This document shows positions 4,111 to 24,104 of a stretch of 28,426 bases of DNA, piece by piece (the first letter of the stretch is position 1; each line of letters opens with the position of its first letter). The position numbers were made by a program, and so were the translations under genes. The notes beneath the pieces are model-generated. The model did not search any database. It was not told the origin of the DNA and saw only the letters and a list, made by a program, of their open reading frames with translations. The stretch comes from a virus. Taxonomy: Duplodnaviria > Heunggongvirae > Uroviricota > Caudoviricetes. The DNA is taken from the IMG/VR virus record IMGVR_UViG_2913123054_000008; one strand, written 5' to 3'.

Positions 4111-4590
4111 TGTGGTTTCCGCTACGCTGCAGCGCCTTTTCGCGCCATGTGATGAGCTCGGTCAGGCTCAAGGAATAGAGCTCTGATGGCGACCAGTGAA
4201 ATATCACTGCAATATCCGCCATCAGGTCATCGGTCGACAGGTCAGGCGGGAAATCTATTCCGCCGAAGCCGGTGACAAAAAACCAATCACCTTAGCGGCC
4301 AGCGACAGCATATCGGGCAGGTTCATTGCGGTAAGCTCCTGCGCCGTGAGCGCGGGATAGGTCATGCGGGGCAGTACTTTAATCAGCGCATCGACTTCGG
4401 ACTGCGCCACCGCAGCCAGACTGACACCGCGCAGGGTACCGGCATTCGGCTCAATCAGGGTAACTTTATCAATCGTCTGACCGGCGCGCTTAATCGGCTT
4501 GTCGAGGGTCACAACGTTCGGGTTTACGGTGTCGATTTCATTACCAGCCGTATCAACAAATTCAGGGGTTTTGCGTGGTGCTTTTGCCAT
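4103..4590 (-). CDS. tail assembly chaperone E+E' (predicted -1 programmed frameshift product)
   Basis: On the coding strand the heptamer T-TTT-TTG (plus coordinates 4276-4282) lies 8 codons before the E stop. The -1 frame stays open from there to a TAA at 4103-4105, overlapping the T start; I translated this frame by hand. Confidence 0.6.
4255..4590 (-). CDS. E: tail assembly chaperone E (zero-frame product)
   Basis: 111 aa ORF between the tail tube and tape measure genes; ends ...IGFLSPASAE just after a TTTTTTG slippery heptamer. Confidence 0.8.
   Translation of the reverse strand: MAKAPRKTPEFVDTAGNEIDTVNPNVVTLDKPIKRAGQTIDKVTLIEPNAGTLRGVSLAAVAQSEVDALIKVLPRMTYPALTAQELTAMNLPDMLSLAAKVIGFLSPASAE
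4276..4282 (-). other. slippery heptamer TTTTTTG for the E/E' -1 frameshift
   Basis: Seen directly in sequence; same heptamer type as described for the P2 E/E' recoding site. Confidence 0.6.
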
Positions 4591-4610
4591 GATGTTTTTC
4601 TCTGCTCTGA

Positions 4611-4645
4611 AAGAGGGTTAATAACCGGCCAGCAGTGCTGACCGG
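4611..4645 (-). terminator. hairpin plus U-rich tract between FII and E (possible attenuator)
   Basis: Inverted repeat ccggccagca / tgctgaccgg (9 of 10 bp pair) at 4625-4645, followed on the minus strand by a T-rich stretch (ttattaaccctctt); sits after the abundant tube gene and before the low-abundance E-T-U-D genes. Confidence 0.4.
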
Positions 4646-4653
4646 TCAGGAAA

Positions 4654-5172
4654 TTACAGCCCGATTGCGCGGCGGTGCTGTTCCAGACGGTCGACGCCGT
4701 TCACCTTCTCAACCATGTTGACGGTATCGATTTCGATGACGTCGCTACCATCAATCGTGAGGCGGTAATAGGTGCATACGGTCGACAGTTTGGTCGAGGT
4801 GTTTTCACCCTGCTTATTCTCGCCGCCGTCGATTTCTTTATGACGGCCACGCATGACCACCTCGACCGCCACGATTTCGCCAGTGTCGTCACGTTGGTAA
4901 GAGCCAGCAAAACGCAACGGCACAGCGTCAGCACCCGGCGCGGCGTACTGCGCCCACAGCGCCACATCAGGCAGGCCACCGACAGACCATTCGACGGTGA
5001 GCGCATCATCGTCGAGACCAAGGTCAATCGCGGCCGCGCCATTCATGCCGCCGCCGCGATAGTTTTCGAGCTTGCGGGTCAGCTTCGGCAGCGTCACGGA
5101 TTCAACAACGCCCATGTAGCTAAGGCCGTCATTGAACATGTTCAGATATTTAAGTTTGCGGGGTAGTGCCAT
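4654..5172 (-). CDS. FII: major tail tube protein
   Basis: 172 aa; size and position directly downstream of the sheath gene as P2 gpFII. Confidence 0.9.
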   Translation of the reverse strand: MALPRKLKYLNMFNDGLSYMGVVESVTLPKLTRKLENYRGGGMNGAAAIDLGLDDDALTVEWSVGGLPDVALWAQYAAPGADAVPLRFAGSYQRDDTGEIVAVEVVMRGRHKEIDGGENKQGENTSTKLSTVCTYYRLTIDGSDVIEIDTVNMVEKVNGVDRLEQHRRAIGL

Positions 5173-5187
5173 GTTGTTTCAGGCTCC

Positions 5188-6366
5188 TTAGCTGTTGACC
5201 GATTCGGCCAGATTCACCAGATATTTATCGGTGATACGCTGGCGCAGGGTTAGGCTTTCCAGTGGGGGAACCGGTGTATAGTCGTAGTCGATATACAGTT
5301 TCCCGGCCTTGAGGGTTTCCTTATCGTTCGATTCCTCGTCGAACCAGCATTCACCGTCCACGATGTAGCCGTTTGATTTCAGCTCGCGGAATTTGGCGTT
5401 AATGCCGTCGACAATGTCACGGATAAGCGATGCGGTGATGGGCTTATCGACCGCCCACATGTGCGCCTCGGCCATCGTGTCGGCCAGCACCTGCGCGGTG
5501 CGGGTGTAGTTCTCAAACAGGAAAAGCGGGTCATCAGAGCAGGTGCGGTTACCCCAAAAGCGGAAGCCATCCTTACGCACCAGTGTCGTGACCCCGGCCT
5601 CGTTGAGCAGATCAGCATCGGTGCCGGATGCCTGCAAATCCCAAAACACTGACGCACTGATGCCGGTAACACCCTGCACGCCGACGTTAGACAGGGTTTT
5701 GTGCCAGCCGACGGTCTGGTCGATATAGGCACGCAGGCCGAGTGCGCGCGCAGTTGCGTATGCCGGTGCGGTGGCGTTTGTGGTGGTATCCCATGCAAGG
5801 AAATCAGGCCAGATGACCATCAGCTCGCGCTGGCTGAAATTCTCGCGATAGGTCATCGCCTCGGAAATGGTTTTACAACCCCATGCGCTGATATAGCCAA
5901 AGGCGCGCAGGCTGATACAGACCGAAGCAAGTGCGACTGCGACCTCTTTGGTATCGAGACCCGGCACGCCGAGAATGCGCGGCTTAACGCCGGTGACCGC
6001 TTCGGCAGTCAACAGCGCCTTGATGCCGGTATATTTACCGTTCTCATCCGTGCCGCCGATGATATTGGAAATGGTCTGCGCTTCGGCGTCTTCTCCGGTA
6101 CCTTCGGCAACACGCACGACAACTGTGACAGGTTTTGACTGGTCGGCGATAGCCTGCAGGGATGCAGCCAGCGTGCCTTTTTTACCGGCTTTCGCAATGG
6201 CGCTTTGCACATTGGTAATCAGTACCGGTTCGTTGAGGGGAAATGTCGTGGCATCTGCATCGCTGGCCGTGCAGACCATGCCGACGATTGCGGTTGCAAC
6301 AGTGGATATGACGCGGGTGCCGTCGTTAATCTCAAGCACCTGCACGCCGTGGTGAAAATCACTCAT
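5188..6366 (-). CDS. FI: contractile tail sheath protein
   Basis: 392 aa; position upstream of the tube gene; size as P2 gpFI. Confidence 0.9.
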   Translation of the reverse strand: MSDFHHGVQVLEINDGTRVISTVATAIVGMVCTASDADATTFPLNEPVLITNVQSAIAKAGKKGTLAASLQAIADQSKPVTVVVRVAEGTGEDAEAQTISNIIGGTDENGKYTGIKALLTAEAVTGVKPRILGVPGLDTKEVAVALASVCISLRAFGYISAWGCKTISEAMTYRENFSQRELMVIWPDFLAWDTTTNATAPAYATARALGLRAYIDQTVGWHKTLSNVGVQGVTGISASVFWDLQASGTDADLLNEAGVTTLVRKDGFRFWGNRTCSDDPLFLFENYTRTAQVLADTMAEAHMWAVDKPITASLIRDIVDGINAKFRELKSNGYIVDGECWFDEESNDKETLKAGKLYIDYDYTPVPPLESLTLRQRITDKYLVNLAESVNS

Positions 6367-6460
6367 CCGGTTAACTCCGTGGTTAGTGGGCGAGTGTATT
6401 TTCTGTTGTGCAGTAACGGCGGGCTATTTGTCGGCGTTGGTTAGCAGATGGCACATAAAC

Positions 6461-6490
6461 AAATTAATAAAAGACGGGCATCAGCCCGCC
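6461..6490 (-). terminator. rho-independent terminator after the tail fibre assembly gene
   Basis: Stem cgggc/gcccg (6475-6488) followed on the minus strand by TCTTTTATTAATTT; lies 3' of the V-W-J-I-H-tfa operon. Confidence 0.5.
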
Positions 6491-6506
6491 ATTCTTTCAA
6501 AGGTTC

Positions 6507-6950
6507 CTATTCTGGTTTGACGGGCCAGGTGATATCTGGAGCTGTAGATGTGTCTACTGCTTCCAGTGCTTCAAGATAATCTAGCCGCAAATTGTATTGA
6601 GCAAGATCATCACCATTCAAACGCCCAATGGCGGCTTTGCCAGGCCATTGCTTGCTTTGCATGTATTCATTTGCGGCATCAATTCGCCGTTGTTTTTCAC
6701 GCTCGGCGGATGCAATTAACTGCTCCTTAGTTGGTTCCGGGGCATCAACCCACGTTGGCAGTCCTCCATCTCCTGGCACCCTGATTTTTCCTGGGTTAAC
6801 TCTCACATACTCAAGGAAAACATCTTCGCCAACTTCTACGCCATTTTCAGGCCATGTGCCTGATCGCTCATAGTCTTCTTTCAGAATCAGGGGATAAAAA
6901 GCGTTTGTTTTTGCATCATAGATATATCTGTTCATTTTATTAATACCCAA
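6507..6950 (-). CDS. tail fibre assembly chaperone (Tfa, gpG-like)
   Basis: 147 aa ORF immediately downstream of and overlapping the tail fibre gene; Tfa-like C-terminus; visibly lower GC than the core. Confidence 0.75.
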   Translation of the reverse strand: MGINKMNRYIYDAKTNAFYPLILKEDYERSGTWPENGVEVGEDVFLEYVRVNPGKIRVPGDGGLPTWVDAPEPTKEQLIASAEREKQRRIDAANEYMQSKQWPGKAAIGRLNGDDLAQYNLRLDYLEALEAVDTSTAPDITWPVKPE

Positions 6951-8130
6951 TCAAAATACATGAACCACCAGAAATGAAGTCACTGGCACGAGAAATAATA
7001 GTTGATGTTGGTCCTGCTCCAACATTTATTGCAAACGTGGTAATTCTCCCACTGGTTGGTTCATATCCGGCACCAACTGCAAAGCCTAAAATTCTACCGG
7101 GGAAAGGAATAGGCAAGGTAATAACCTGATCGCCATCATGAGGCGGAATTGCAACCCATTGAATCAACTTTCCAGGTAATTTCTGCCAGTATATTTCAGA
7201 TTGAAAACTGCTCATATCGGGGATGTAATCAAGGTCAGCTGTACCAACCTGGCGCTTTGCGGCGTCCTTCAGTCCAAGATTCTGGAGAAACTTCGCCACA
7301 TCTTGAATATCCTCGCCGTTTTGGCTTTTCTGCATCGCGCCGGTGATACGTGTATCATCACCCGCCGCAACAGTATTGGCAGTTGTACCGGTGTTTTTCG
7401 TCGAGCTGTCACCAAGTTGCAGATTCTGGCGCGCCAGTGCTGGATTAGGTAAATCGGAGAGATTGCGTTCTTTAGCCAGCCGTGCATTCGCGTTATCCAT
7501 CGCAATTTTTACGGCTTTCGGGGTTGCCGATTGTGTCTCGCGGTCATCCGTCACACTGCTGTTAAGCTGCGTAAAACCTTTAGCGGTAGTGGTTGCATCT
7601 GGATGGTTGCGCGACTGTTCGTGGGCGCGCATGAGTCCGTCAGCGTAACTCTTCACCTCGATAACCTTATCGTCAACATACTGGCGCGTAGCAAGTACGA
7701 CTGACGGGTCAATTTTCAGGGTGATAGCCGACGTGCTCGACACAATCAGAATCATGCGAATGGTCTGCGTGCGGCCGCTACCCTCCTGTAGTTGTGGCTT
7801 GTAGGTTTCCGGGCAGTTCGCCACAGCAATGAGCACACCTGCGTCGTCGTAGAGACCAATCTCGCGGATCCAGAAACCACCTTCATTCTCGGGAATAATC
7901 TGTTCCGCGATAATCTGACTGGTATTGGCCGGGTCAACGGTCAGCAGGTTCAGCGGCGCGATGCGTTTCTGGTTAATGAGCTTCGTCTGCGCCGGGTCAG
8001 GGGTCGGCAACGTACCATTCGCATCACCGACGGCCATCTGCGTCAGGTTGAGTTTGGTACCGAGTGCCGCCGCGTTCGCCAGCCGCGCCGCGCCCTGATT
8101 GGTCAGAATGGCAAAATATTTTGCGGTCAT
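6940..8130 (-). CDS. H: tail fibre protein (H-like, short form)
   Basis: 396 aa ORF after baseplate gene I; N-terminal region typical of the P2 H baseplate-attachment domain; C-terminal part low-GC. Confidence 0.8.
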   Translation of the reverse strand: MTAKYFAILTNQGAARLANAAALGTKLNLTQMAVGDANGTLPTPDPAQTKLINQKRIAPLNLLTVDPANTSQIIAEQIIPENEGGFWIREIGLYDDAGVLIAVANCPETYKPQLQEGSGRTQTIRMILIVSSTSAITLKIDPSVVLATRQYVDDKVIEVKSYADGLMRAHEQSRNHPDATTTAKGFTQLNSSVTDDRETQSATPKAVKIAMDNANARLAKERNLSDLPNPALARQNLQLGDSSTKNTGTTANTVAAGDDTRITGAMQKSQNGEDIQDVAKFLQNLGLKDAAKRQVGTADLDYIPDMSSFQSEIYWQKLPGKLIQWVAIPPHDGDQVITLPIPFPGRILGFAVGAGYEPTSGRITTFAINVGAGPTSTIISRASDFISGGSCILIGY

Positions 8131-8735
8131 GCGTTCACTCTCAGGTTATCAATCAAATGGATGGCCGAGGCCGGGTAATATTCACCGCCGACGACAATCT
8201 CCTCGGGGGTGTAGGGGTAAACAGTCAGCGCGTCGCCGTGATAGCATCCCGCGCCGACATACAGTTCGCCGGTCGAGCTCAGACTGATAGCCAGCCCGGT
8301 CAGGTGGCGACTTGCCGGTTTGGCGTCTTCAATCAGGCGCTCAAGCTCCTGATACATTTCGTCAGTGATGCCGTTGTCGAGGACGCCAACAACGAGGCGG
8401 AATGTGCCTGGCTCCTCGTCGAGTTGCCACCACTCGCGCACCTCAATCAGAAAGCCGAGCGGCTCGACGACCCGACGCAATGCGCTGATGGTGCCTTTGT
8501 GCTGATGGACGAAAAACGAGGACGCGCAGACGCTGCGCTTTGTCGCCTCCGGCCATTTCTCATCCCACCTGTCGACCGACAGCGCCCACGCCAGATACGG
8601 CAGCAGCTTTACCGGGCAGGTGTGCCAGTTCCACAGGGTGCGCAGCGGTACCGGCACGCGCTGAATCTCAGAGAACGCAGCGGCGGCGGCGACTTCCAGC
8701 GGCGACGAGCCAACGGGTAATAGCCGGTCATTCAT
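8127..8735 (-). CDS. I: baseplate assembly protein I
   Basis: 202 aa; synteny J-I-H. Confidence 0.8.
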   Translation of the reverse strand: MNDRLLPVGSSPLEVAAAAAFSEIQRVPVPLRTLWNWHTCPVKLLPYLAWALSVDRWDEKWPEATKRSVCASSFFVHQHKGTISALRRVVEPLGFLIEVREWWQLDEEPGTFRLVVGVLDNGITDEMYQELERLIEDAKPASRHLTGLAISLSSTGELYVGAGCYHGDALTVYPYTPEEIVVGGEYYPASAIHLIDNLRVNA

Positions 8736-16625: not shown

Positions 16626-18395
16626 ATGACCATTTCCACCGATACAACCTTGTTGCATGACCCGCGACGGCAGGCATCGCTGCTTTACTGGCAGGGTTTT
16701 TCCGTGCCACAGATTGCCGAAATGCTGCAGGTCAAGCGCCCGACCGTGCAGAGCTGGAAGCAGCGCGACGGCTGGGACGGCATCGCGCCGATTTCCCGCG
16801 TTGAAAGCAGCCTTGAGGCTAGGCTGATTCAGCTCATCGCCAAGCCGCAAAAGACAGGGGGTGATTTCAAAGAGATTGACCTGCTCGGACGGCAGATTGA
16901 ACGGTTGGCGCGAGTCAACCGCTACAGCCAGACCGGCAACGAAGCCGACCTTAACCCCAACGTCGCCAACCGCAACAAAGGGGAGCGCAAAAAGCCGAAA
17001 AAGAATTTTTTCAGCGACGAGGCTATCGATAAACTAGAGGAATTATTTTTCGACCAGTCTTTCGAGTACCAGTTGCAGTGGTACCGCGCAGGACTGGAGC
17101 ACCGTATTCGTGACATTCTCAAATCCCGCCAGATTGGCGCGACATTCTATTTCTCCCGCGAGGCACTGCTGCGCGCACTCAAAACCGGCCATAACCAGAT
17201 ATTTTTATCAGCCAGTAAAACGCAGGCTTACGTGTTCCGCGAATACATCATCCAGTTTGCGCGACTGGTCGACGTTGACCTGACTGGCGACCCGATTGTC
17301 ATCGGTAACAACGGCGCAAAACTGATTTTTCTCGGTACCAATTCCAACACCGCGCAGAGCCATAACGGCGATCTGTATGTCGATGAAATATTCTGGATCC
17401 CGAATTTTCAGAAACTGCGCAAAGTCGCCTCGGGCATGGCCTCGCAAAAGCACCTGCGCTCGACCTATTTTTCGACACCTTCCACGCTGGCGCACGGCGC
17501 TTACCCCTTCTGGTCTGGCGAGCTGTTCAACAAGGGGCGCAGCCGGATTGCCGACCGCATCGAAATCGACATCAGTCACAGCGCGCTCGCCGGTGGCCAG
17601 CTCTGCGACGATGGCCAGTGGCGGCAGATTGTCACCATTGAGGACGCCCTTGCGGGTGGCTGCACCCTGTTCGACCTCGACCAGCTCAAATGCGAAAACA
17701 GTGATGAGGACTTTAAGAACCTGTTTATGTGCGAGTTTGTCGACGATAAAGCGTCGGTATTCCCGTTCGAGGAGCTGCAGCGCTGCATGGTCGATGTGAT
17801 GGAGGAATGGGAGGACTTTGCCCCGTTCGCCGACCATCCGTTCGGCTCTCGTCCTGTCTGGATTGGCTACGACCCGTCACACACCGGCGACAGTGCCGGG
17901 TGCGTCGTGCTCGCGCCGCCGGTGGTCTCTGGTGGCAAGTTCCGCATGCTGGAGCGCCACCAGTGGAAGGGCATGGATTTTGCAGCACAGGCAGAGGGCA
18001 TCCGCAAGCTGACCGAGAAATACAACGTCGAATACATCGGCATTGACGCAACCGGCCTCGGTCTCGGCGTGTTCCAGCTGGTGCGCTCATTTTACCCGTC
18101 GGCACGCGGCATCCGTTACACACCTGAAATGAAAACCGCAATGGTACTCAAGGCGAAAGACACCATTCGCCGTGGCTGTCTGGAGTACGACGCCGGAGCA
18201 ACCGACGTCACGCAGTCGTTTATGTCCATCCGCAAAACCATGACCAGCAGCGGGCGCAGCGCCACCTATGAGGCCAGCCGCACCGAGGAAGCCAGCCACG
18301 CCGATATCGCATGGGCGACCATGCACGCCCTGTTAAACGAACCGCTTTCTGCCGGTAGCGGCATGCAGCCTAAATCTATTCTGGAGTTCAACTAA
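16626..18395 (+). CDS. P: terminase large (ATPase) subunit P
   Basis: 589 aa; size and synteny with the downstream portal gene. Confidence 0.9.
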   Translation: MTISTDTTLLHDPRRQASLLYWQGFSVPQIAEMLQVKRPTVQSWKQRDGWDGIAPISRVESSLEARLIQLIAKPQKTGGDFKEIDLLGRQIERLARVNRYSQTGNEADLNPNVANRNKGERKKPKKNFFSDEAIDKLEELFFDQSFEYQLQWYRAGLEHRIRDILKSRQIGATFYFSREALLRALKTGHNQIFLSASKTQAYVFREYIIQFARLVDVDLTGDPIVIGNNGAKLIFLGTNSNTAQSHNGDLYVDEIFWIPNFQKLRKVASGMASQKHLRSTYFSTPSTLAHGAYPFWSGELFNKGRSRIADRIEIDISHSALAGGQLCDDGQWRQIVTIEDALAGGCTLFDLDQLKCENSDEDFKNLFMCEFVDDKASVFPFEELQRCMVDVMEEWEDFAPFADHPFGSRPVWIGYDPSHTGDSAGCVVLAPPVVSGGKFRMLERHQWKGMDFAAQAEGIRKLTEKYNVEYIGIDATGLGLGVFQLVRSFYPSARGIRYTPEMKTAMVLKAKDTIRRGCLEYDAGATDVTQSFMSIRKTMTSSGRSATYEASRTEEASHADIAWATMHALLNEPLSAGSGMQPKSILEFN

Positions 18396-18396
18396 A

Positions 18397-19443
18397 ATGG
18401 GTAAACAAAAATCCCGTAAAGCCAACGCACAAAAGGCCAGCAAACCACAACAACTGACCGCCAGCGCACCGCCAAAAACGACAGCGTTCACCTTCGGCGA
18501 GCCGGTGCCGGTACTCGATAAGCGCGACATTCTGGATTACGTCGAGTGCATCAGTAACGGCAAATGGTACGAGCCGCCGGTCAGCTTCTCAGGGCTGGCA
18601 AAGAGCCTGCGCTCTGCCGTGCATCACAGCTCGCCAATTTATGTTAAGCGTAACGTGCTCGCGAGCACCTACATTCCGCACCCGTTGTTATCCCGTCAGG
18701 ATTTCAGCCGCTTTGCGCTCGATTATCTGGTGTTCGGTAACGCCTTTCTTGAGCAGCGCCACAGCGTCACCGGCCAGTTAATCAAACTGCTGGCCTCGCC
18801 AGCCAAATATACCCGACGCGGAGTCGACGATTCGATTTTCTGGTTTGTGGAAAACTTCACCCAGCCGCACGAGTTCGCGCCTGATACCGTGTTTCACCTG
18901 CTGGAGCCCGACATTAATCAGGAGATTTACGGTCTGCCGGAATATCTCAGCGCGCTTAATTCCGCTTGGCTGAATGAATCCGCGACGCTGTTCCGCCGCA
19001 AGTATTATCAGAACGGCGCGCACGCAGGCTACATCATGTATGTGACTGACCCGGCGCAAAGTGCGACCGACGTCGAATCGCTGCGCGAGGCGATGCGTAA
19101 CTCGAAGGGACTCGGCAACTTTAAGAACCTGTTTTTCTACGCCCCCGGCGGAAAACCGGACGGCATCAAAATCGTGCCACTGAGCGAGGTCGCCACAAAG
19201 GATGACTTTTTCAACATTAAGAAAGCCAGCGCCGCCGACCTGATGGACGCGCACCGCGTGCCGTTCCAGCTCATGGGCGGCAAGCCCGAGAATATCGGTT
19301 CACTCGGTGACGTTGAGAAGGTGGCAAAGGTATTTGTGCGTAATGAGCTGTCACCCCTGCAGGATAGGTTCAGGGAGGTAAACGACTGGCTCGGTATGGA
19401 GGTCATCAGGTTCAAAGAGTACACACTCGACAACTTGGAATAA
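18397..19443 (+). CDS. Q: portal protein Q
   Basis: 348 aa; starts 1 nt after the P stop; followed by a terminator and the cos region as in P2. Confidence 0.9.
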   Translation: MGKQKSRKANAQKASKPQQLTASAPPKTTAFTFGEPVPVLDKRDILDYVECISNGKWYEPPVSFSGLAKSLRSAVHHSSPIYVKRNVLASTYIPHPLLSRQDFSRFALDYLVFGNAFLEQRHSVTGQLIKLLASPAKYTRRGVDDSIFWFVENFTQPHEFAPDTVFHLLEPDINQEIYGLPEYLSALNSAWLNESATLFRRKYYQNGAHAGYIMYVTDPAQSATDVESLREAMRNSKGLGNFKNLFFYAPGGKPDGIKIVPLSEVATKDDFFNIKKASAADLMDAHRVPFQLMGGKPENIGSLGDVEKVAKVFVRNELSPLQDRFREVNDWLGMEVIRFKEYTLDNLE

Positions 19444-19452
19444 TCACCTTTT

Positions 19453-19478
19453 AAGCCGCCATTTTGGCGGCTTTTGCT
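19453..19478 (+). terminator. rho-independent terminator after Q
   Basis: Perfect 8 bp stem aagccgcc / ggcggctt with loop atttt, followed by a T-run (ttttgctat). Confidence 0.6.
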
Positions 19479-19481
19479 ATG

Positions 19482-19706
19482 TTAGCCTTTAGACTTTTTA
19501 GGATCATCTTTTCTCTGATAAGTGCGTTCTTCCTGAATTTTCCCATCTTCCTTGTGAATTTTGACCGAACCTGTTTTGTTCGACATAAACTCAGATGTTG
19601 TTTTAATCAGCTCGGCCTTTGTGGTCGCGGTCTTGCTAGGGCGGTCATTGCCCTCTTTTTGCAACTTCCACTTATCGCCATCTTTTGTAATATGATAGTT
19701 ATCCAT
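19482..19706 (-). CDS. small hypothetical protein (DUF2188-like moron between Q and cos)
   Basis: 74 aa from MDNYHITKDGDKWKLQKEGNDRPSK... with a GGAGG RBS; low-GC; the motif pattern (DGxW, KEG, HxxDGKIQ) recalls DUF2188-type small proteins from memory only. Confidence 0.5.
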   Translation of the reverse strand: MDNYHITKDGDKWKLQKEGNDRPSKTATTKAELIKTTSEFMSNKTGSVKIHKEDGKIQEERTYQRKDDPKKSKG

Positions 19707-19910
19707 TAAAGCCTCCAACTGTTGTGGGGAACATAAAGTCTCAATATGGATATTAGCCAAAGCGAAACCGTAAAATTGTGCAACTGATCCCATCCTTTAG
19801 CACCACGCCACAGACGCACCATGCGCCCACGATCACACCCGGCCACTACAGCGCCGTCACGACGTTCTCAGACGATAATTTTTAATAATACGCACCACCG
19901 CTGGCGCGCA

Positions 19911-19929
19911 ATGCTTTCCCCGCCACGCC
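19911..19929. other. cos site (19 nt cohesive-end sequence, P2/186 type)
   Basis: The reverse complement of 19911-19929 reads GGCGTGGCGGGGAAAGCAT, which matches my recollection of the 186 cohesive end and differs at two positions from P2; it sits where cos is expected, just past the Q 3' end. Confidence 0.6.
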
Positions 19930-20253
19930 TGCCCGCTTTATGGAGCGGTTTTAATGCAGTTGCATGACTACTCTGGATCCGCTTCAGCTCTGGCGGCGCA
20001 CGGCCAGAACGGGCAATCCCGGCGCATGCAAAACCATGCACCTGTTGCATGCACGACTAAAAAACGGGGTAATCGCGGAAAAATGGCATAAAAAAATCGG
20101 CATTCACGGTGCCGGTTTGGGGCTGGTTTTATCACGATTACTGGCGCGCAATGCGCCAATAACACTATTGAGGCACATGCTGGCAACAATCACCAGAAAA
20201 ATCGTCGTCCACGGATTTTCATAACAAGAGATAACATATTGATATAGATCCTT

Positions 20254-20445
20254 TTATTTGTGCATTCTGATGTGGTTTAACAAGTGTTTGATAACGACCG
20301 TAAGCTCATCTTTATTGGCTTGCTCGACCATTTTTTCGGTGTAGCTTTCCACCTCACGAGAACTCAGGTCGTTATTTGAAGCCATTACAGTCAGCTTTTT
20401 TGCCCAATCGGCAAACGGGTCTATTGATGAAAGGGAATTAAGCAT
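20254..20445 (-). CDS. small hypothetical protein, divergent from the 143 aa cargo gene (start uncertain)
   Basis: Open frame with helical/charged composition (…SREVESYTEKMVEQANKDELTVVIKHLLNHIRMHK); candidate starts at 20445 (GAGG RBS, 63 aa) or 20385 (43 aa). The 20445 start overlaps the ATG of the opposing gene. Confidence 0.3.
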   Translation of the reverse strand: MLNSLSSIDPFADWAKKLTVMASNNDLSSREVESYTEKMVEQANKDELTVVIKHLLNHIRMHK

Positions 20446-20875
20446 GTCCAAAAACCTCGAATTATTTAACCAGCAGACGGCGGAAATCTTTGCGGTGTTA
20501 TGGGATAACTTCCCGGTGCCACAGGTCATTACCTACGAAAAATTTAACGCCGCGCTACCTGATGACTACTTTGACCAACTTAACTCACCGGAAATGAAAG
20601 CACTGAATCAGTTGCGCAGTGTGGTTGAGGGTACATTCACTTTTCTCAGTGAAAACGGCTACATCCAGTACGGAACAGACCACCAGACCTATTTTTATGA
20701 TGTGCGCCTGACCGAGAAAGCACTCGCCGTGCTTAACAAAAAGCCCGAGGCGCTCGGCGGTAATGAAACAATGGGCGATAAGATTATCAGTGCAGTGAAA
20801 GACGGGACGCCGGGAGTGATTGCCGGTGCGGTGACAAACCTGCTTACCCTCGGTGTCAATCTGGTAACCAGCTAA
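20444..20875 (+). CDS. hypothetical cargo protein, 143 aa, with a C-terminal glycine-zipper-like hydrophobic helix
   Basis: Clean ORF with an AAGGGA RBS-like element; low-GC relative to the core; C-terminus GTPGVIAGAVTNLLTLGVNLV contains a GxxxG pattern; no family recognised. Confidence 0.55.
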   Translation: MSKNLELFNQQTAEIFAVLWDNFPVPQVITYEKFNAALPDDYFDQLNSPEMKALNQLRSVVEGTFTFLSENGYIQYGTDHQTYFYDVRLTEKALAVLNKKPEALGGNETMGDKIISAVKDGTPGVIAGAVTNLLTLGVNLVTS

Positions 20876-20942
20876 CGCCTCGCGGGGCTCGTTGTTCAAC
20901 CCCGTCAGCACTGAAAGCGAGTTTCAGCGCTGACGACGTTTG

Positions 20943-21152
20943 CTATCGTCGACGTGGTGGAGGTGCGTATTTTGTCGGTCTGCTGATGCTATCCAGCTTG
21001 CCGCAATTATCCCTGACTATTTCGGCACACCCGACCAGCTCGGTGGGTGTCAAATTCTCATTGACCATTATCTGCTGCAGGCGATGAACGATAGCCATTA
21101 ACTTAATATTTCTGGTCTGGTGCTGCGGTATTTCACCTGGTAGTCGATGCAT
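20943..21152 (-). CDS. small hypothetical protein (69 aa)
   Basis: ORF with a good RBS (GAGGG, about 7 nt spacer) before the ATG; lies between two copies of a covarying hairpin repeat. Confidence 0.4.
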   Translation of the reverse strand: MHRLPGEIPQHQTRNIKLMAIVHRLQQIMVNENLTPTELVGCAEIVRDNCGKLDSISRPTKYAPPPRRR

Positions 21153-21351
21153 ATTATCACCCTCAATGAATTTTAATCAGTGCCGTCAAAACGCCACTAT
21201 AAAACCCTCTCAGGTCATGTCTCATTCATCACTGGCGTGTCATCAATAGCACATTGAGAAATTTTGAAAGGCAGGACTAAAGCCTCGTGGTCTCGTTACT
21301 CAACCCCGTCGACGCAAAAAGCTGGTTTTTGCGCCAACACGGTTATCATGT

Positions 21352-21582
21352 TTAACGCCAGCTATCGTCTTCCCAAATCTCTTGTAATATGCCGCTTAAT
21401 GTTTCTTTGTCTGCTTCTTTATCGAATCCGATAACCTCTACACCAGTCATTGACCCTTTCTTGACGTTAACTTTTATTGCTGGAAAAACGCATTGTACTC
21501 GATGTGTTATTTCATTCTGAAAAGCATCAATGATCTGTTGCCCTAATTTTTGTTCTTTATCCAACGTGATATTGATTCTCAT
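21352..21582 (-). CDS. dinI: DinI-family protein (DNA-damage-inducible protein I-like)
   Basis: 76 aa; MRINITLDKEQKLGQQIIDAFQNEITHRVQCVFP...VIGFDKEADKETLSGILQEIWEDDSW aligns by eye with E. coli DinI along its length; downstream of an SOS box. Confidence 0.8.
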   Translation of the reverse strand: MRINITLDKEQKLGQQIIDAFQNEITHRVQCVFPAIKVNVKKGSMTGVEVIGFDKEADKETLSGILQEIWEDDSWR

Positions 21583-21585
21583 AAT

Positions 21586-21768
21586 CTAATCAGCCTTATA
21601 AAAATTATCATCTTCGGTTTCGTTATTCTCGCTGTTTGCTAGGTCTGCAATGAGAGTGAGCGCGAGCTTTAAGTCTGATGGCTTGCAGTTTGCAATCAGA
21701 GATACCTCGGCAATAAATTGCACACAAGCCCACTTTTGCTGCGTTCGGCTGAAATGTTCGTCAACCAT
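21586..21768 (-). CDS. small protein, first gene of the SOS-controlled operon (possible Tum antirepressor N-terminal part)
   Basis: 60 aa ORF with a near-perfect RBS (GGAGGG) and a LexA box just upstream; ends with TAG in the same frame as, and 3 nt before, the dinI-like ATG. Confidence 0.5.
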   Translation of the reverse strand: MVDEHFSRTQQKWACVQFIAEVSLIANCKPSDLKLALTLIADLANSENNETEDDNFYKAD

Positions 21769-21787
21769 GGAATCCCTCCTACAGGGT

Positions 21788-21807
21788 TACTGTATGTTTA
21801 TACAGTA
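21788..21807. promoter_or_regulatory. LexA (SOS) box upstream of the 60 aa / dinI-like operon
   Basis: TACTGTATGTTTATACAGTA contains CTGT-N8-ACAG and matches the enterobacterial SOS-box consensus TACTGTATATATATACAGTA at 18 of 20 positions; it overlaps a TATAAA -10-like hexamer on the coding strand. Confidence 0.75.
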
Positions 21808-21881
21808 GCACGTATTGGTAAAAGATGGGAAGAAAAAAAACGAATAGGGCGATTGTCGTATGTACATGATATGGATATAAA

Positions 21882-24104
21882 TTACTCTGATATTGGTTTT
21901 GATGCTTCAGCTATCGCAGCAACACGATTAAGGATTTTCCTGGCTTTAGCCTCATGCGATGGTGCTGTGGAAAATATTTCTCCTTTGGCCGTTCCGCGTA
22001 GCCATTTACCATCAAAACAACTTTTACCACCGGCCATCAGGTGCAGAGCTTCGCCCCGGCTGATATTAATGCCGGTTGTCAAATGTATCTCTTCGATAGT
22101 TTTCGCTATAGCTGCGTTTTGCTCATCCGTTCCGTGGACGAATTTTCGCCGTGCTGCTGGCTTTTGCTTCCTGAGTCGGTTGGTCAACTCTCGTCTTTCA
22201 CGCCGACTCAGTGGTTTTGTTAAATCCAGTATCGGTGGATCGCTTTCGCTTCCCGTACAGTTATTGACAGAACTCCGAGGGACGGCTTTGCCGTCCTGAA
22301 GGTCAACGGCCAAATCAACAGCACGCTTCGGAACAATCTTCCACTGAGTGAGCCGGGTTAAAATCGGACTCCCTGCACCTATGGAGGAATCGTAGACTCC
22401 CTTAATACATACCGTTTCCTCACCGTACTGATTAAGCTCGGTACGCGGTTCATACAGTGTGCGCACCTGTAAATCATCGCGACGGACAAACGGCCCACCC
22501 TGAGCATTAACATAACCAGCCCAGTCACCAGCGTCGGCGGCATCATGGACGGCGGCAAACTCAACGCTCAGTCCGTGCGCGGTTTCGGTATCAGCGAGGC
22601 GACGCAACTCACGGTAAACCGTCACCGGCGCACCACCGATAAACTGAAACTGACGGATGTGCCAGCGCGCAGCCCATGCTGAAACGGCGGGGGCTGTCTC
22701 TTTCAGTAGCTCACCGCTTTCATCATCGGTTTCACCATCGAGAGCATAACCGTCGATATTTTTTGAAATGTATTTAGCAACATAGCCTGTTGCGCTGCCT
22801 TTCTCCGGGTCAATGGACTCGGCGTGGAAACGTGCTTTTTTGGATTTATCGCTTTTCAGTTCGTGGCGGTCTTCTTTCCATGCGTATTTACGGACGATGG
22901 AGCGAACATATTCAACATCTTCCGGCAGCATGAACATCAGCATGTGCCAGTGTGGAGTGCCGTCGTGATGAGGCTCGGCGACACGAATACCGAAAATACG
23001 GACATCTTCCCGATGTAGTTTGGCACGGATACGCGCCCAGATACCGGTTAGATAGTTTTGCGTGTCAGCCGGGCTGGCACCGCTCCATTTGCTGTTACGG
23101 TAACCGGCTTTAGTCGTGGCGTGATATTTTGACGGCGCGGTTAGAGTGTAAAACTCACCGACATAACCGAGCTCATTACAGATGTTTTCAAACCCACGAA
23201 TGCGGGTCATGAGCTCACAGCGGCGAATCGCAGGGTTAGCAACTGAGCCATCATATTTTTCAATCAGGCTGATACGGTTGCCGTCTTCGTCTTCGAGATC
23301 CAGACCTTTGAGAAATTCACGAGTGCGGCGCTTTTGTTCACGCCAGTCAGTCACGCAGTTTTTACTCGCGTAAGTGTTTTTTTTCTTACTGACGTTGCCG
23401 ACTGCAATTTGCAGGTGTTCGCGCCACGTAGCTGCAACACGGCGCAAACGACCGCGCCACCACCCATCGTTAAACATTTTGGCGATAGCCGGTGCGATTT
23501 CATCCGCACCGACATATTTTTTTTCAACCCGCTCCCAATGTGGTGGGATAACGTTAAATTGGAGGGAAATAAAGCCAGCACGAATATACCAGGTGTACAG
23601 CGTTTTAAGCTCGCCGAATCCGTGGTCATTAATGTTGGCAAGTTCACCACGAATGAAATTAGCAATATCAGCGGCCAACAGGTCAACATCAGCGCGCGAC
23701 ATATCCGGGAGACGGTTATATCGGGCGACCATATTAACCATGCGTGACGACAGATATTGCATTTGCTGAGTATCAAAATGACTTCCAAAAACAGCGGTTG
23801 ATACCTTGCTGTTGATACCAGCGCATTCGTATTTTTTTGCGACCAGTTCAAGACGCGGCAATGCCTTTTTGCAGAAGTTGATTAAAAATGCATTGGCTCG
23901 TTGACTACCCTGATTTTGCTCCAGCACCGCAGCAGTGCGATAAACATCTAACCGCACGCAGTCGGGCTGGAGAGAAAGCACCTTTTTTGCATGCAGCAAA
24001 GCCGCGAACATACGGTCGCGGCGATGCTGTTGCTCATAAGTAAGGTATGGGCTGGAGATTGCCGACCGTGGGACGTTCCACGGATAAGCGAATTGAACAG
24101 CCAA
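21882..24104 (-). CDS. A: replication initiation protein A (rolling-circle endonuclease, gpA-like)
   Basis: 740 aa; contains TLTAPSKYH, HHDGTPHWHM and AKYISKNIDGYALDG motifs recalled from P2 gpA; last gene of the early operon. Confidence 0.9.
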   Translation of the reverse strand: MAVQFAYPWNVPRSAISSPYLTYEQQHRRDRMFAALLHAKKVLSLQPDCVRLDVYRTAAVLEQNQGSQRANAFLINFCKKALPRLELVAKKYECAGINSKVSTAVFGSHFDTQQMQYLSSRMVNMVARYNRLPDMSRADVDLLAADIANFIRGELANINDHGFGELKTLYTWYIRAGFISLQFNVIPPHWERVEKKYVGADEIAPAIAKMFNDGWWRGRLRRVAATWREHLQIAVGNVSKKKNTYASKNCVTDWREQKRRTREFLKGLDLEDEDGNRISLIEKYDGSVANPAIRRCELMTRIRGFENICNELGYVGEFYTLTAPSKYHATTKAGYRNSKWSGASPADTQNYLTGIWARIRAKLHREDVRIFGIRVAEPHHDGTPHWHMLMFMLPEDVEYVRSIVRKYAWKEDRHELKSDKSKKARFHAESIDPEKGSATGYVAKYISKNIDGYALDGETDDESGELLKETAPAVSAWAARWHIRQFQFIGGAPVTVYRELRRLADTETAHGLSVEFAAVHDAADAGDWAGYVNAQGGPFVRRDDLQVRTLYEPRTELNQYGEETVCIKGVYDSSIGAGSPILTRLTQWKIVPKRAVDLAVDLQDGKAVPRSSVNNCTGSESDPPILDLTKPLSRRERRELTNRLRKQKPAARRKFVHGTDEQNAAIAKTIEEIHLTTGINISRGEALHLMAGGKSCFDGKWLRGTAKGEIFSTAPSHEAKARKILNRVAAIAEASKPISE

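Follow-up and report, generated by a model that had tools for sequence, protein, structure and literature searches.

In P2-like phages, the interval between gpA and gpQ, which adjoins cos, has been described as a hotspot for defence genes (PMC9122126; PMC13586616). Members of the DUF2188 family have already been recorded at this place. Rousset et al. 2022 (PMC9122126) list the set 'hypothetical + DinI + hypothetical + hypothetical + DUF2188' at gpA-gpQ in their Table S5, and the P4-like set 'AAA_21 + DUF2188 + HNH', that is the Septu pair PtuAB plus DUF2188, in their Table S1; DUF2188 is absent from the table of evaluated systems of the same study. The DUF2188 proteins of E. coli P2-like prophages are known from NCBI cluster P0001 and from WP_001472400 in that Table S5. 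The family has been predicted to be linked to defence (bioRxiv 10.1101/2022.04.27.489752; 10.64898/2025.12.03.692087), and HHpred has connected DUF2188 to RPA3313 (PDB 5JN6) and onward to the N-terminal domain of HicB (PMC13621843).

Here we analyse a DUF2188 gene in a stretch of 28,426 nucleotides, hereafter the window, from a virus of the class Caudoviricetes (IMG/VR record IMGVR_UViG_2913123054_000008). The window carries gpA at 21882-24104 and the portal gene at 18397-19443, with cos between them, and the occupancy of the interval is variable, which places the locus in the published hotspot. The gene resembles old and tin of P2 and other gpA-gpQ cargo in being AT-rich, optional and rapidly swapped, and in lying between A and Q beside cos; it differs from old and tin in that it has no homology to them and is found on the portal side of cos, not on the A side. 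Typical defence proteins of the hotspot are far larger than the DUF2188 protein, which has no effector domain. When considering the known E. coli copies, there is no difference in the gene itself: one protein of cluster P0001, seen on 275 contigs, is 100% identical to the window protein over 74 residues. Beyond cos, the neighbours at 20130-21900 match E. coli genomes without DUF2188, and the combination present in the window is therefore a different mosaic. The gene and its locus arrangement are already catalogued, identical copies are annotated in RefSeq, and the finding is largely an ordinary one.

Anatomy of the portal-cos interval

The DUF2188 gene occupies positions 19482-19706 on the minus strand and encodes 74 amino acids followed by a stop codon (8.6 kDa, pI 9.5, 15 lysines). 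As stated in the original prediction, this reading frame has its own ribosome-binding site: a GGAGG Shine-Dalgarno sequence is read directly from the sequence at 19712-19716 on the minus strand, 5 nt before the ATG at 19706, and TGGAGG is kept at this position in most of the P2-like and P4-like DUF2188 alleles. A longer version of 103 aa, starting from an upstream ATG at 19793, is given by the ORF listing and by PGAP/RefSeq. Because nearly all of the best 120 of the 323 homologs found are of the 74-aa class, and because the MD(N/K)Y N-terminus of the window protein is common to 26 of 26 aligned homologs, these alignments indicate that the 74-aa start at 19706 is better supported than the 103-aa RefSeq call. 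The gene was also expected to be AT-rich relative to the core, and this is indeed the case: it has a GC content of 40.4%, whereas the window has 53.2% and the portal and terminase genes have 55-57%, and its GC3 is 0.45, against 0.70 for the portal gene. Only 3.5% of 225-nt segments are as AT-rich. The gene lies 10-14 GC points under its flanks in nearly all of the P2-like loci considered (about 30). The low GC content is in part explained by a Lys/Asp/Glu-rich amino-acid composition.

The left border of the slot is the portal gene (18397-19443, plus strand), a homolog of P2 Q and 186 W whose product shares 93.7% amino-acid identity with the annotated portal of phage 186. It is followed at 19453-19476 by a G+C-rich hairpin that can be read on both strands (stems 19453-19461 and 19465-19473, then T residues). 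This hairpin aligns with the annotated 186 terminator tW, is located 5 nt past the DUF2188 stop codon and has a folding energy of -16.7 kcal/mol on the plus strand (z -3.4) and -18.1 kcal/mol on the minus strand (z -4.6); the same GCCGCC...GGCGGC hairpin is also present 3' of DUF2188 at P2-like as well as P4-like loci. Both convergent transcripts probably end here, which is uncertain for the minus-strand direction, where just two U residues follow the stem. The right border is cos, whose 19-nt cohesive-end sequence (19911-19929, GGCGTGGCGGGGAAAGCAT on the minus strand) matches the cos annotated in 186 exactly and lies 204 nt upstream of the DUF2188 ATG in identical IMG/VR copies. Since the window continues through cos, the source DNA is a prophage or a circular form. 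The distance from the portal stop (19443) to cos, predicted to be about 470 bp, is 467 nt, compared to 176 nt in phage 186. Alignment against 186 and YpM_MHG51 delimits the extra DNA as a cassette of ~314 bp on the minus strand (19477-19790, 40.4% GC), and the megablast matches of related phages skip about 19476-19842 of the window.

The upstream end of this cassette is a conserved block (19744-19790, minus strand) that travels with the DUF2188 gene and constitutes a putative promoter. It includes a -10-like TAATAT (19750-19755, reverse complement), of which T1, A2 and T6 are conserved across alleles; it has no recognisable -35, and a scan for consensus sigma-70 elements did not call a promoter. 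The phages 186 and YpM_MHG51, which are without the DUF2188 gene, are also without this block. Since the block occurs only where the gene does, it is ruled out as a part of the packaging signal. Several other signals were considered and rejected. A candidate LexA box, CTGT-N8-ACAT at 19720-19735, is located between the -10 and the ribosome-binding site, but its spacing is unconserved (the Ecol_545 allele has one additional base) and its spacer is G+C-rich. Inspection of the upstream sequence by eye revealed candidate sigma-54 elements that are wrongly spaced and not conserved, and no match to a P2 Ogr-type late promoter (TGT-N12-ACA near -55). Folding of the 5' UTR gave no significant structure or hairpin sequestering the Shine-Dalgarno sequence (-4.2 kcal/mol, z = +1.2), and no known RNA family matched at 19300-20300. 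The segment 19477-19790 is almost certainly a self-contained accessory cassette, made of a promoter-like block, GGAGG and a 74-codon ORF, which abuts the portal terminator hairpin.

Occupancy of the slot and exchange of the cassette

The slot is empty in 65 of the 80 viral contigs whose portals are closest to that of the window, with 152-179 nt between portal and cos; it contains DUF2188 in 7 contigs and other cargo in 7. This alternative cargo is 1.3-2.5 kb long, with a GC content of 34-41%, and some of it matches the PADLOC models NsnA/PD-T4-2_A and DndB/DpdB. In one contig (L137), the slot is filled by different cargo although the portal shares 99.7% identity with that of the window. With 65 of the 80 slots empty, the gene is clearly not a universal component of the region in related phages, and about 90% of the closest prophage relatives are without it. 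The phages 186, PSP3 and EtG do not have it, nor do the Yersinia YpM phages, and a search of 50,697 deposited phage genomes gave a DUF2188 match in one only, a 33%-identical protein from a Streptococcus satellite. The gene is found in 21 of 5426 complete E. coli genomes. The window allele is present in 7 E. coli genomes, at the same portal-cos position and with the cassette (314 bp) 98.7-99.7% identical.

A moron, as defined by the Hendrix laboratory, is a transcription unit added between genes that lie side by side in related phages. The DUF2188 gene corresponds to this description by its position, since it is inserted between the portal terminator and cos, which are adjacent in related phages, and also by its composition, since its GC content is unlike that of the surrounding genome. 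The proposal of an acquired moron is thus sustained in that the gene is accessory, AT-rich and provided with translation signals of its own and with a promoter-like block that is conserved; it fails as a one-off acquisition, because the same cassette exists in diverged P2-like phages and in P4-like satellites. Very probably, the gene is an optional cassette, one of several alternative cargoes for the slot.

In P2-like phages whose portals are 71-99.7% identical, the same cassette fills the same slot, at 116-280 nt from cos; in phages with portals down to 52% identical, it is found near the portal. Its alleles share 70-82% nucleotide identity, against 92-95% for the flanking structural genes. 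The cassette alleles being far more diverged than their flanks, the cassette has been swapped as a module. In P4-like satellites, the gene order is integrase, PtuA, PtuB, DUF2188, cos, psu, delta, sid. In these satellites, the upstream block and the GCCGCC/GGCGGC hairpin are the same and the 74-aa gene is 81-85% identical; their cassette points away from cos, at a distance of 212-213 nt. The difference lies in the neighbour of DUF2188, which is Septu PtuAB in the satellites and the portal gene in the window. Between cos and the upstream block, the P4-like and 186-like copies have non-homologous spacers, and any exchange between them is therefore not recent. Judging from these comparisons, P2-like phages exchange the cassette with one another as a module, and P4-like satellites have it in common with them. 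This sharing bears on a recent report according to which hotspot genes are almost never exchanged between P2 and P4 (PMC13586616).

The DUF2188 protein and its relatives outside P2 and P4

The assignment to a DUF2188-type family was borne out by an HMM search. The Pfam DUF2188 profile (PF09954) matches with E = 2.7e-18 and 66.3 bits, against a gathering cut-off of 22, and residues 4-63 cover profile positions 1-62 of 62, i.e. its full length. The protein is also matched by phrog_3220 (6e-32) and, over nearly their full length, by two PADLOC profiles of PDC-S16 (PDLC04941 at 9.3e-15 and PDLC04942 at 8.4e-14); an NCBIfam search gave no matching model. PDC-S16 is a PADLOC candidate system only, and no mention of it was found in the literature searched. 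Most of the 150 listed family representatives are single-domain proteins of ~70-80 aa, while a minority have 2-3 copies of the domain; the window protein, with its 74 aa, fits the typical stand-alone architecture. Domain fusions among 445 family representatives are uninformative, consisting of tandem repeats and weak sub-threshold matches only.

Comparison of the phage alleles gives pN values of 0.08-0.2, pS values of 0.7-1.0 and a median dN/dS of 0.04, with saturated synonymous sites. The ORF thus has a coding signature, and these values indicate that the gene is under strong purifying selection. Across loci labelled as distant phyla, homologs remain 55-86% identical to the window protein. 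The AlphaFold2 model (mean pLDDT 84) predicts a strand-strand-strand-helix-strand-strand fold, which would be followed by a disordered Lys-rich C-terminal tail of 10 residues; this tail includes an invariant D68-P69. Neither a catalytic motif nor an effector domain was recognised in the protein. Foldseek returned nothing at E = 0.001 or better against the PDB and viral models, and sequence searches of the PDB (single sequence, close profile and broad profile) gave no match and did not recover 5JN6.

Outside phages, homologs are abundant in chromosomal and plasmid contexts. In 15 Pseudomonas species, the DUF2188 gene is directly downstream of ligD and co-directional with it, whereas the outer neighbours vary; in 14 of the 15 loci the two genes are 1-70 nt apart, and in the remaining one (L052) they are 171 nt apart. 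On plasmid pF061_1, ligD overlaps the start of DUF2188 by 1 nt. On p60503-DIM and on a conjugative plasmid of P. shirazica, the order is stand-alone end-joining ligase, 94-aa hypothetical protein, DUF2188, and the P. shirazica locus adjoins umuD. On the Rhodococcus plasmid pRB11, 2.4 kb separate the DUF2188 gene from a DNA ligase. In Chromatiaceae, 74%-identical homologs head an operon that contains a multi-ubiquitin protein and is divergent from an HTH-M78 peptidase regulator (RmrA / CapH-CapP-like).

Expression and possible roles

The putative promoter, with a transcript start predicted near 19741-19743, would drive transcription of DUF2188 convergently with the late operon, in which case expression should be independent of late-gene activation; against this view, the promoter is deduced from conservation alone. 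The prophage would be the most likely source of expression. Expression right after the DNA has entered the cell is a further possibility, since no other gene precedes DUF2188 when reading inward from the left cohesive end, and the promoter block remains on the same end fragment. With no catalytic motif, a mass of just 8.6 kDa and an extreme conservation, the protein would most likely work as a binder of some conserved protein or nucleic acid.

Because of the location of the gene and of its neighbours, we prefer a role in conflict between genetic elements: the protein may take part in defence of the lysogen, or it may modulate defence or the DNA-damage response. The candidate match to PDC-S16, the Septu neighbour in the satellites and the Chromatiaceae operon with its HTH-M78 regulator and multi-ubiquitin protein all speak for this role, as do the published predictions of a defence link (bioRxiv 10.1101/2022.04.27.489752; 10.64898/2025.12.03.692087); a paper of 2020 by Burroughs and Aravind is cited for the defence prediction. 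However, a dN/dS of ~0.04 and 55-86% identity across loci labelled as distant phyla are unusual for arms-race genes; on this evidence, the high conservation appears to fit a housekeeping-like partner better than an arms race. Many homologs are also found in non-island contexts, above all in the ligD operons of Pseudomonas, the fold searches are without a significant match, and the domain fusions are uninformative. A function specifically in conflict or defence is thus only tentatively proposed, as plausible rather than probable. The explanation as a whole, in which the anatomy, the nature of hotspot cargo and a conflict role are taken together, is in our opinion slightly favoured.

The ligD neighbourhoods suggest a different reading, in which DUF2188 is a small basic protein acting with end-joining ligases or at DNA ends. 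Cos phages and their satellites would keep it beside cos to aid in protecting or joining their own cohesive ends after entry, or to disturb the ends of competitors. The linkage to ligD is repeated on Pseudomonas chromosomes and plasmids, a ligase is near DUF2188 on pRB11, and the protein is basic (pI 9.5). There is also a precedent: the mycobacteriophages Corndog and Omega, according to what Pitcher and colleagues are said to have described in 2006, encode Ku and circularise their genomes via the LigD of the host. The analogy is functional, in that a cos phage carries a factor tied to an end-joining ligase of its host; DUF2188 has no homology to Ku and, to our knowledge, neither LigD nor Ku exists in E. 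coli, the host in the case of the window. Moreover, about 90% of close relatives are without the gene, which is therefore not needed for cos joining. The hotspot itself and the homology of P2 and P4 at cos also account for the nearness of the gene to cos, a single inherited arrangement may in part underlie the Pseudomonas cases, and the fold searches recognised no DNA-binding fold. For these reasons, a factor associated with DNA ends or ligases is unlikely, and it is distinctly unlikely that DUF2188 is a previously unrecognised accessory factor of DNA ends and end-joining ligases that was captured by P2-like phages as well as by P4-like satellites. If this were true, DUF2188, being the gene met first on reading inward past the cohesive end, would promote or protect the joining of the element's own ends on entry or sabotage those of competing phages.

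The predicted fold raises the question of an orphan HicB-like mini-antitoxin or counter-defence protein, which would neutralise a host toxin, HicA-type or other, or an effector triggered by infection or induction. The strand-strand-strand-helix core of the model resembles the small core of the HicB N-terminal domain and of RPA3313 (5JN6), to which DUF2188 would add further strands, in line with the published HHpred links from DUF2188 through RPA3313 to HicB (PMC13621843). Foldseek gave weak matches to the HicB-like antitoxin 3k6q (E = 0.23, probability 0.87, TM 0.39, 41 columns) and to a phage 'HicB-like antitoxin' model, and both the small size and the position of the gene would suit early expression. 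These Foldseek matches are not significant, however (E 0.2-0.6), and 5JN6 was missed by the sequence and profile searches and is absent from the 50 listed Foldseek matches in the PDB. Unlike HicB, DUF2188 has no HicA-like partner ORF within the 467-nt portal-cos interval and no C-terminal DNA-binding domain. Its very strong conservation is atypical for anti-defence proteins, and the linkage to ligD would be left unexplained. A HicB-like function is therefore quite improbable.

A part in packaging or cos function, with the extra DNA or its product belonging to the packaging signal or to head assembly, could be imagined for a gene immediately beside cos and the portal gene that is common to a helper phage and to a satellite using the helper's terminase. 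The distribution of the gene has largely refuted this very improbable reading: 186, PSP3 and 65 of the 80 closest relatives lack the gene and all have an identical or near-identical cos, the slot takes unrelated cargo, homologs abound on chromosomes and plasmids outside phages, and the gene is transcribed against the late operon. Finally, a chance ORF in a non-coding AT-rich spacer, which the short length, the AT-richness and the lack of a strong consensus promoter might evoke, is refuted by the full-length Pfam match, the 323 homologs (the best 120 nearly all of ~74 aa) and a dN/dS of ~0.04 with saturated synonymous sites, as well as being at odds with the confident AlphaFold2 model.

Neither the operonic linkage to ligD nor the fixed cos-side position was found in the papers searched that mention DUF2188. 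DUF2188 is among the most conserved uncharacterised small proteins that travel on phages, satellites and plasmids, and its profile matches make it a candidate for defence. It shows two clean associations, an operonic linkage to ligD and a fixed position on one side of cos in a helper phage family and its satellite. The repeated linkage to ligD is unexpected, and may leave room for a role related to DNA ends.

The 74-codon gene beside cos

The window is a P2/186-like prophage (Peduoviridae, Eganvirus-type) in the orientation opposite to the standard 186 map, with the large terminase gene at 16626-18395 (+), the portal gene (the homolog of P2 Q and 186 W, 93.7% identical to the annotated 186 portal) at 18397-19443 (+), a 19-nt cos unchanged from that of 186 at 19911-19929 and replication gene A at 21882-24104 (-). 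The portal stop is followed by a G+C-rich hairpin (19453-19473; folding energies of -16.7 and -18.1 kcal/mol for the two strands), which aligns with the annotated 186 terminator tW. From the portal stop to cos we measured 467 nt against 176 nt in 186, in keeping with the separation of about 470 bp in the original prediction. The 74-codon minus-strand ORF proposed there is indeed present between the hairpin and cos, running from the ATG at 19706 to the stop at 19482-19484, with a GGAGG (19712-19716, -) 5 nt upstream of the start. It is also as AT-rich relative to the core as proposed (40.4% GC versus 53.2% for the whole window; GC3 of 0.45 versus 0.70 for the portal gene), and only 3.5% of 225-nt windows are equally AT-rich. 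The guess of a DUF2188-type protein was confirmed by a full-length match to Pfam PF09954 (66 bits for a cut-off of 22, E = 2.7e-18); the PHROGs match is phrog_3220, a family of unknown function (6e-32), and no NCBIfam model matched the protein.

Both ORF calling and the RefSeq (PGAP) annotation of identical E. coli copies give a 103-aa product starting at an upstream ATG (19793). Judging from the homologs, this is almost certainly an over-extension and the start at 19706 is the correct one: 323 relatives were retrieved from 5.8 billion proteins, and the best 120 of them are nearly all of the 74-aa class; all 26 aligned homologs share the N-terminus MD(N/K)Y; and the GGAGG is positioned for the shorter product. 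Phage alleles differ by 0.08-0.2 non-synonymous changes per site while synonymous sites are saturated (0.7-1.0), with a median dN/dS of 0.04, and the ORF is thus a real and strongly constrained gene. The protein is basic (pI 9.5, 15 lysines), and W13, E60, T62, Y63, D68 and P69 are its most conserved residues in a broad alignment. A confident AlphaFold2 model (mean pLDDT 84) predicts three strands, a helix and two further strands, then a disordered lysine-rich tail. Neither the single sequence nor narrow and broad profiles detected a related solved structure, and Foldseek returned nothing at E = 0.001 or better; its best hints, below significance, were the HicB-like antitoxin 3k6q (probability 0.87, TM 0.39), a phage 'HicB-like' model and DUF1508. 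A link by HHpred from DUF2188 through RPA3313 (5JN6) to the HicB N-terminal domain has been published (PMC13621843, 2026); our searches did not reproduce its DUF2188-5JN6 step.

Comparison of portal-cos regions in relatives shows that the gene is not universal. Phages 186, PSP3, EtG, Yersinia YpM and others align on both flanks and skip ~19476-19842 (megablast against deposited phages), and in a multiple alignment the extra DNA sits between the hairpin and a spacer homologous to that of 186. On this alignment we would place the cassette at 19477-19790 (~314 bp). A block situated ~45 nt 5' of the ATG is conserved in all gene-bearing elements, both P2-like phages of several lineages and P4-like satellites, and is missing where the gene is missing. 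It includes a -10-like hexamer (TAATAT in the window; TAAAAT, TAGGAT or TAAACT in other alleles) in which T1, A2 and T6 are kept; no -35 was recognisable and a consensus promoter scan made no call. From its pattern of conservation, the block is a probable promoter. A GCCGCC...GGCGGC hairpin likewise lies 3' of the gene in all P2-like and P4-like elements compared, including satellites devoid of a portal gene.

Occupancy of the portal-to-cos slot

We compared the portal-to-cos interval, or slot, in the 80 IMG/VR contigs with the portals closest to that of the window (76-100% identity). It is empty in 65 (152-179 nt from portal stop to cos), carries DUF2188 in seven (374-488 nt) and other AT-rich cargo in another seven (1.3-2.5 kb); cos was not found in the remaining contig. 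The other cargo (L137, L139, L177, L200, L203, L208 and L210) mostly comprises two genes per contig, and part of it matches the PADLOC models NsnA/PD-T4-2_A and DndB/DpdB. One of these contigs, L137, has a portal 99.7% identical to that of the window, yet different cargo. The portal side of cos is therefore itself a swap slot.

We found the gene in 21 of 5426 complete E. coli genomes: as the window allele in seven, as a same-site allele of 79% nucleotide identity in four, and within P4-like satellites in ten. It was found in none of 50,697 deposited phage genomes, except for a 33%-identical match in a Streptococcus satellite. A broader survey, based on the DUF2188 protein and not on the portal, recovered about 30 P2-like loci (portals 71-99.7% identical to that of the window, cos of 186 or P2 type) with the gene 27-38 nt past the portal stop and 116-280 nt from cos. 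In more distant P2-like phages (portals 52-57% identical) it lies 0.5-1 kb from the portal; five such contigs (L117-L121, portals 54-57% identical) have a D12-class Dam methyltransferase gene in between. A second slot is used in four P2-like prophage contigs (L101-L104): there DUF2188 follows gpU, gpD, ogr and an ORF of 55-87 aa, at the extreme end of the contig, which is probably the att-proximal end of the prophage. Phages with 92-95% identity in terminase and portal DNA share only 70-82% identity in the cassette, with saturated synonymous sites, and such divergence relative to the flanks indicates that alleles are exchanged as modules. The cassette is thus optional but not private to this phage. 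Of the 'acquired moron' originally proposed, the accessory character stands, given the 65 empty slots; the implied lineage-specific acquisition does not, given the P2-like loci and P4-like satellites that share the gene.

In the P4-like satellites (L092, L096 and L130, the last from E. coli Combat11I9 and integrated at ssrA), the order is integrase, PtuA, PtuB, DUF2188, cos, psu, delta, sid, the PtuA/PtuB pair being Septu (PADLOC 5e-162 and 8e-86). DUF2188 lies 212-213 nt from cos and reads away from it, with the same upstream block and hairpin as in P2-like phages. P2 and P4 almost never exchange defence genes according to PMC13586616, which makes a cassette common to helpers and satellites notable. 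Rousset et al. 2022 (PMC9122126) defined two defence hotspots, one between gpA and gpQ in P2-like phages and one next to cos in P4, and the window gene occupies the portal side of the first. Among the arrangements in the supplementary tables of that study are 'AAA_21 + DUF2188 + HNH' (P4) and 'hypothetical + DinI + hypothetical + hypothetical + DUF2188' (P2); the second matches the locus of E. coli AST217, whose identity to the window over 19300-20250 is 96%. DUF2188 is not among the tested systems tabulated there; the gene and its location were thus already catalogued, its function not. As an occupant of the hotspot beside cos, on its portal side, this compact cassette is both optional and swappable.

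On the other side of cos, a DinI-family gene (21352-21582, -; Pfam 1.4e-18) lies between cos and replication gene A, as in related 186-like prophages. An AT-rich stretch spans 20050-20650, and neither of two overlapping AT-rich candidate ORFs (20254-20529, -, 91 aa; 20444-20875, +, 143 aa) has a Pfam match. Across 20130-21900, the window shares 94-95% identity with four E. coli genomes devoid of DUF2188, so that the two sides of cos are mosaic independently of each other.

Contexts outside P2-like and P4-like elements

The strongest non-phage association is an unexpected one, with ligD. In 15 Pseudomonas species DUF2188 is immediately downstream of full-length ligD and co-directional (e.g. L058, ligD 4522-7977 and DUF2188 8001-8225), with a gap of 1-70 nt in 14 loci and 171 nt in L052, while the outer neighbours differ among the loci (within L026-L078). 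This arrangement suggests that the two genes are probably co-transcribed. Pseudomonas plasmids (L131, L132, L135) show two arrangements. On pF061_1 the end of full-length ligD and the start of DUF2188 overlap by 1 nt; in p60503-DIM-type megaplasmids and in a conjugative plasmid of P. shirazica, a stand-alone end-joining ligase and a 94-aa hypothetical protein precede DUF2188, with umuD alongside in P. shirazica. A DNA ligase is also encoded 2.4 kb from DUF2188 on a Rhodococcus plasmid. The ligD link is apparently not treated in the literature that we found mentioning DUF2188.

Other contexts point to conflict systems. The protein matches the PADLOC candidate defence system PDC-S16, and papers citing Burroughs & Aravind 2020 (10.1101/2022.04.27.489752; 10.64898/2025.12.03.692087) describe DUF2188 as predicted to be defence-associated, as occurring in operons under CapH/CapP-like regulators and as a putative Thoeris effector domain. 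We recovered one such regulator context directly: in three Chromatiaceae genomes (MAGs L012, L013, L017), a 74%-identical homolog heads an operon (e.g. L013:6749-12095) divergent from a fused HTH-M78 peptidase regulator (RmrA / CapH-CapP-like) and is followed by two unannotated proteins, a multi-ubiquitin-domain protein and a 177-aa protein. Domain fusions were uninformative, the family being almost always stand-alone or tandemly repeated. Taking MAG labels as given, identity to the window protein is 55-86% for loci from genomes labelled CPR, Chlorobi, Desulfobacterota and Gammaproteobacteria. With assignments likewise taken as given, homologs of 63-80% identity occur on contigs from very distant phyla: L007 (Ca. 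Yonathbacteria), L010 (Peregrinibacteria), L011 (Chlorobiaceae), L029 (Leptospirales), L044 (Blastopirellula) and L082 (Marinoscillum). Such identity is unusual for a 74-aa protein. In almost every host, the GC of the gene is below that of its flanks (mean difference -6.5 points).

Proposed role and its rivals

The DUF2188 gene would be transcribed from its own putative promoter against the late operon, and expression from the prophage is therefore possible. Expression straight after DNA entry may also occur, since DUF2188 comes first among the genes when reading inward from the left cohesive end. The protein would act by binding rather than catalysis. We tentatively favour a conflict-related role, on account of the defence-like alternative cargo of the slot, the pairing with Septu in P4 and the damage-regulated conflict operons. 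Conservation this strong fits poorly with an arms-race gene of the classic kind and is more suggestive of a conserved cellular partner. The main rival, a role linked to DNA ends or ligase, would accommodate the ligD operons, the basic charge of the protein and the fixed position beside cos; E. coli lacks LigD and most phage relatives lack the gene, and we consider this role unlikely. More doubtful still is an orphan HicB-like neutraliser, for which the support is a weak resemblance of the predicted fold and which has no partner toxin gene. A packaging role is effectively excluded by the distribution of the gene, and a chance ORF by its coding signature.

The DUF2188 gene is already known, as an annotated and catalogued hotspot gene; it is the linkage to ligD and the cos-adjacent position shared by P2 and P4 that merit further interest.
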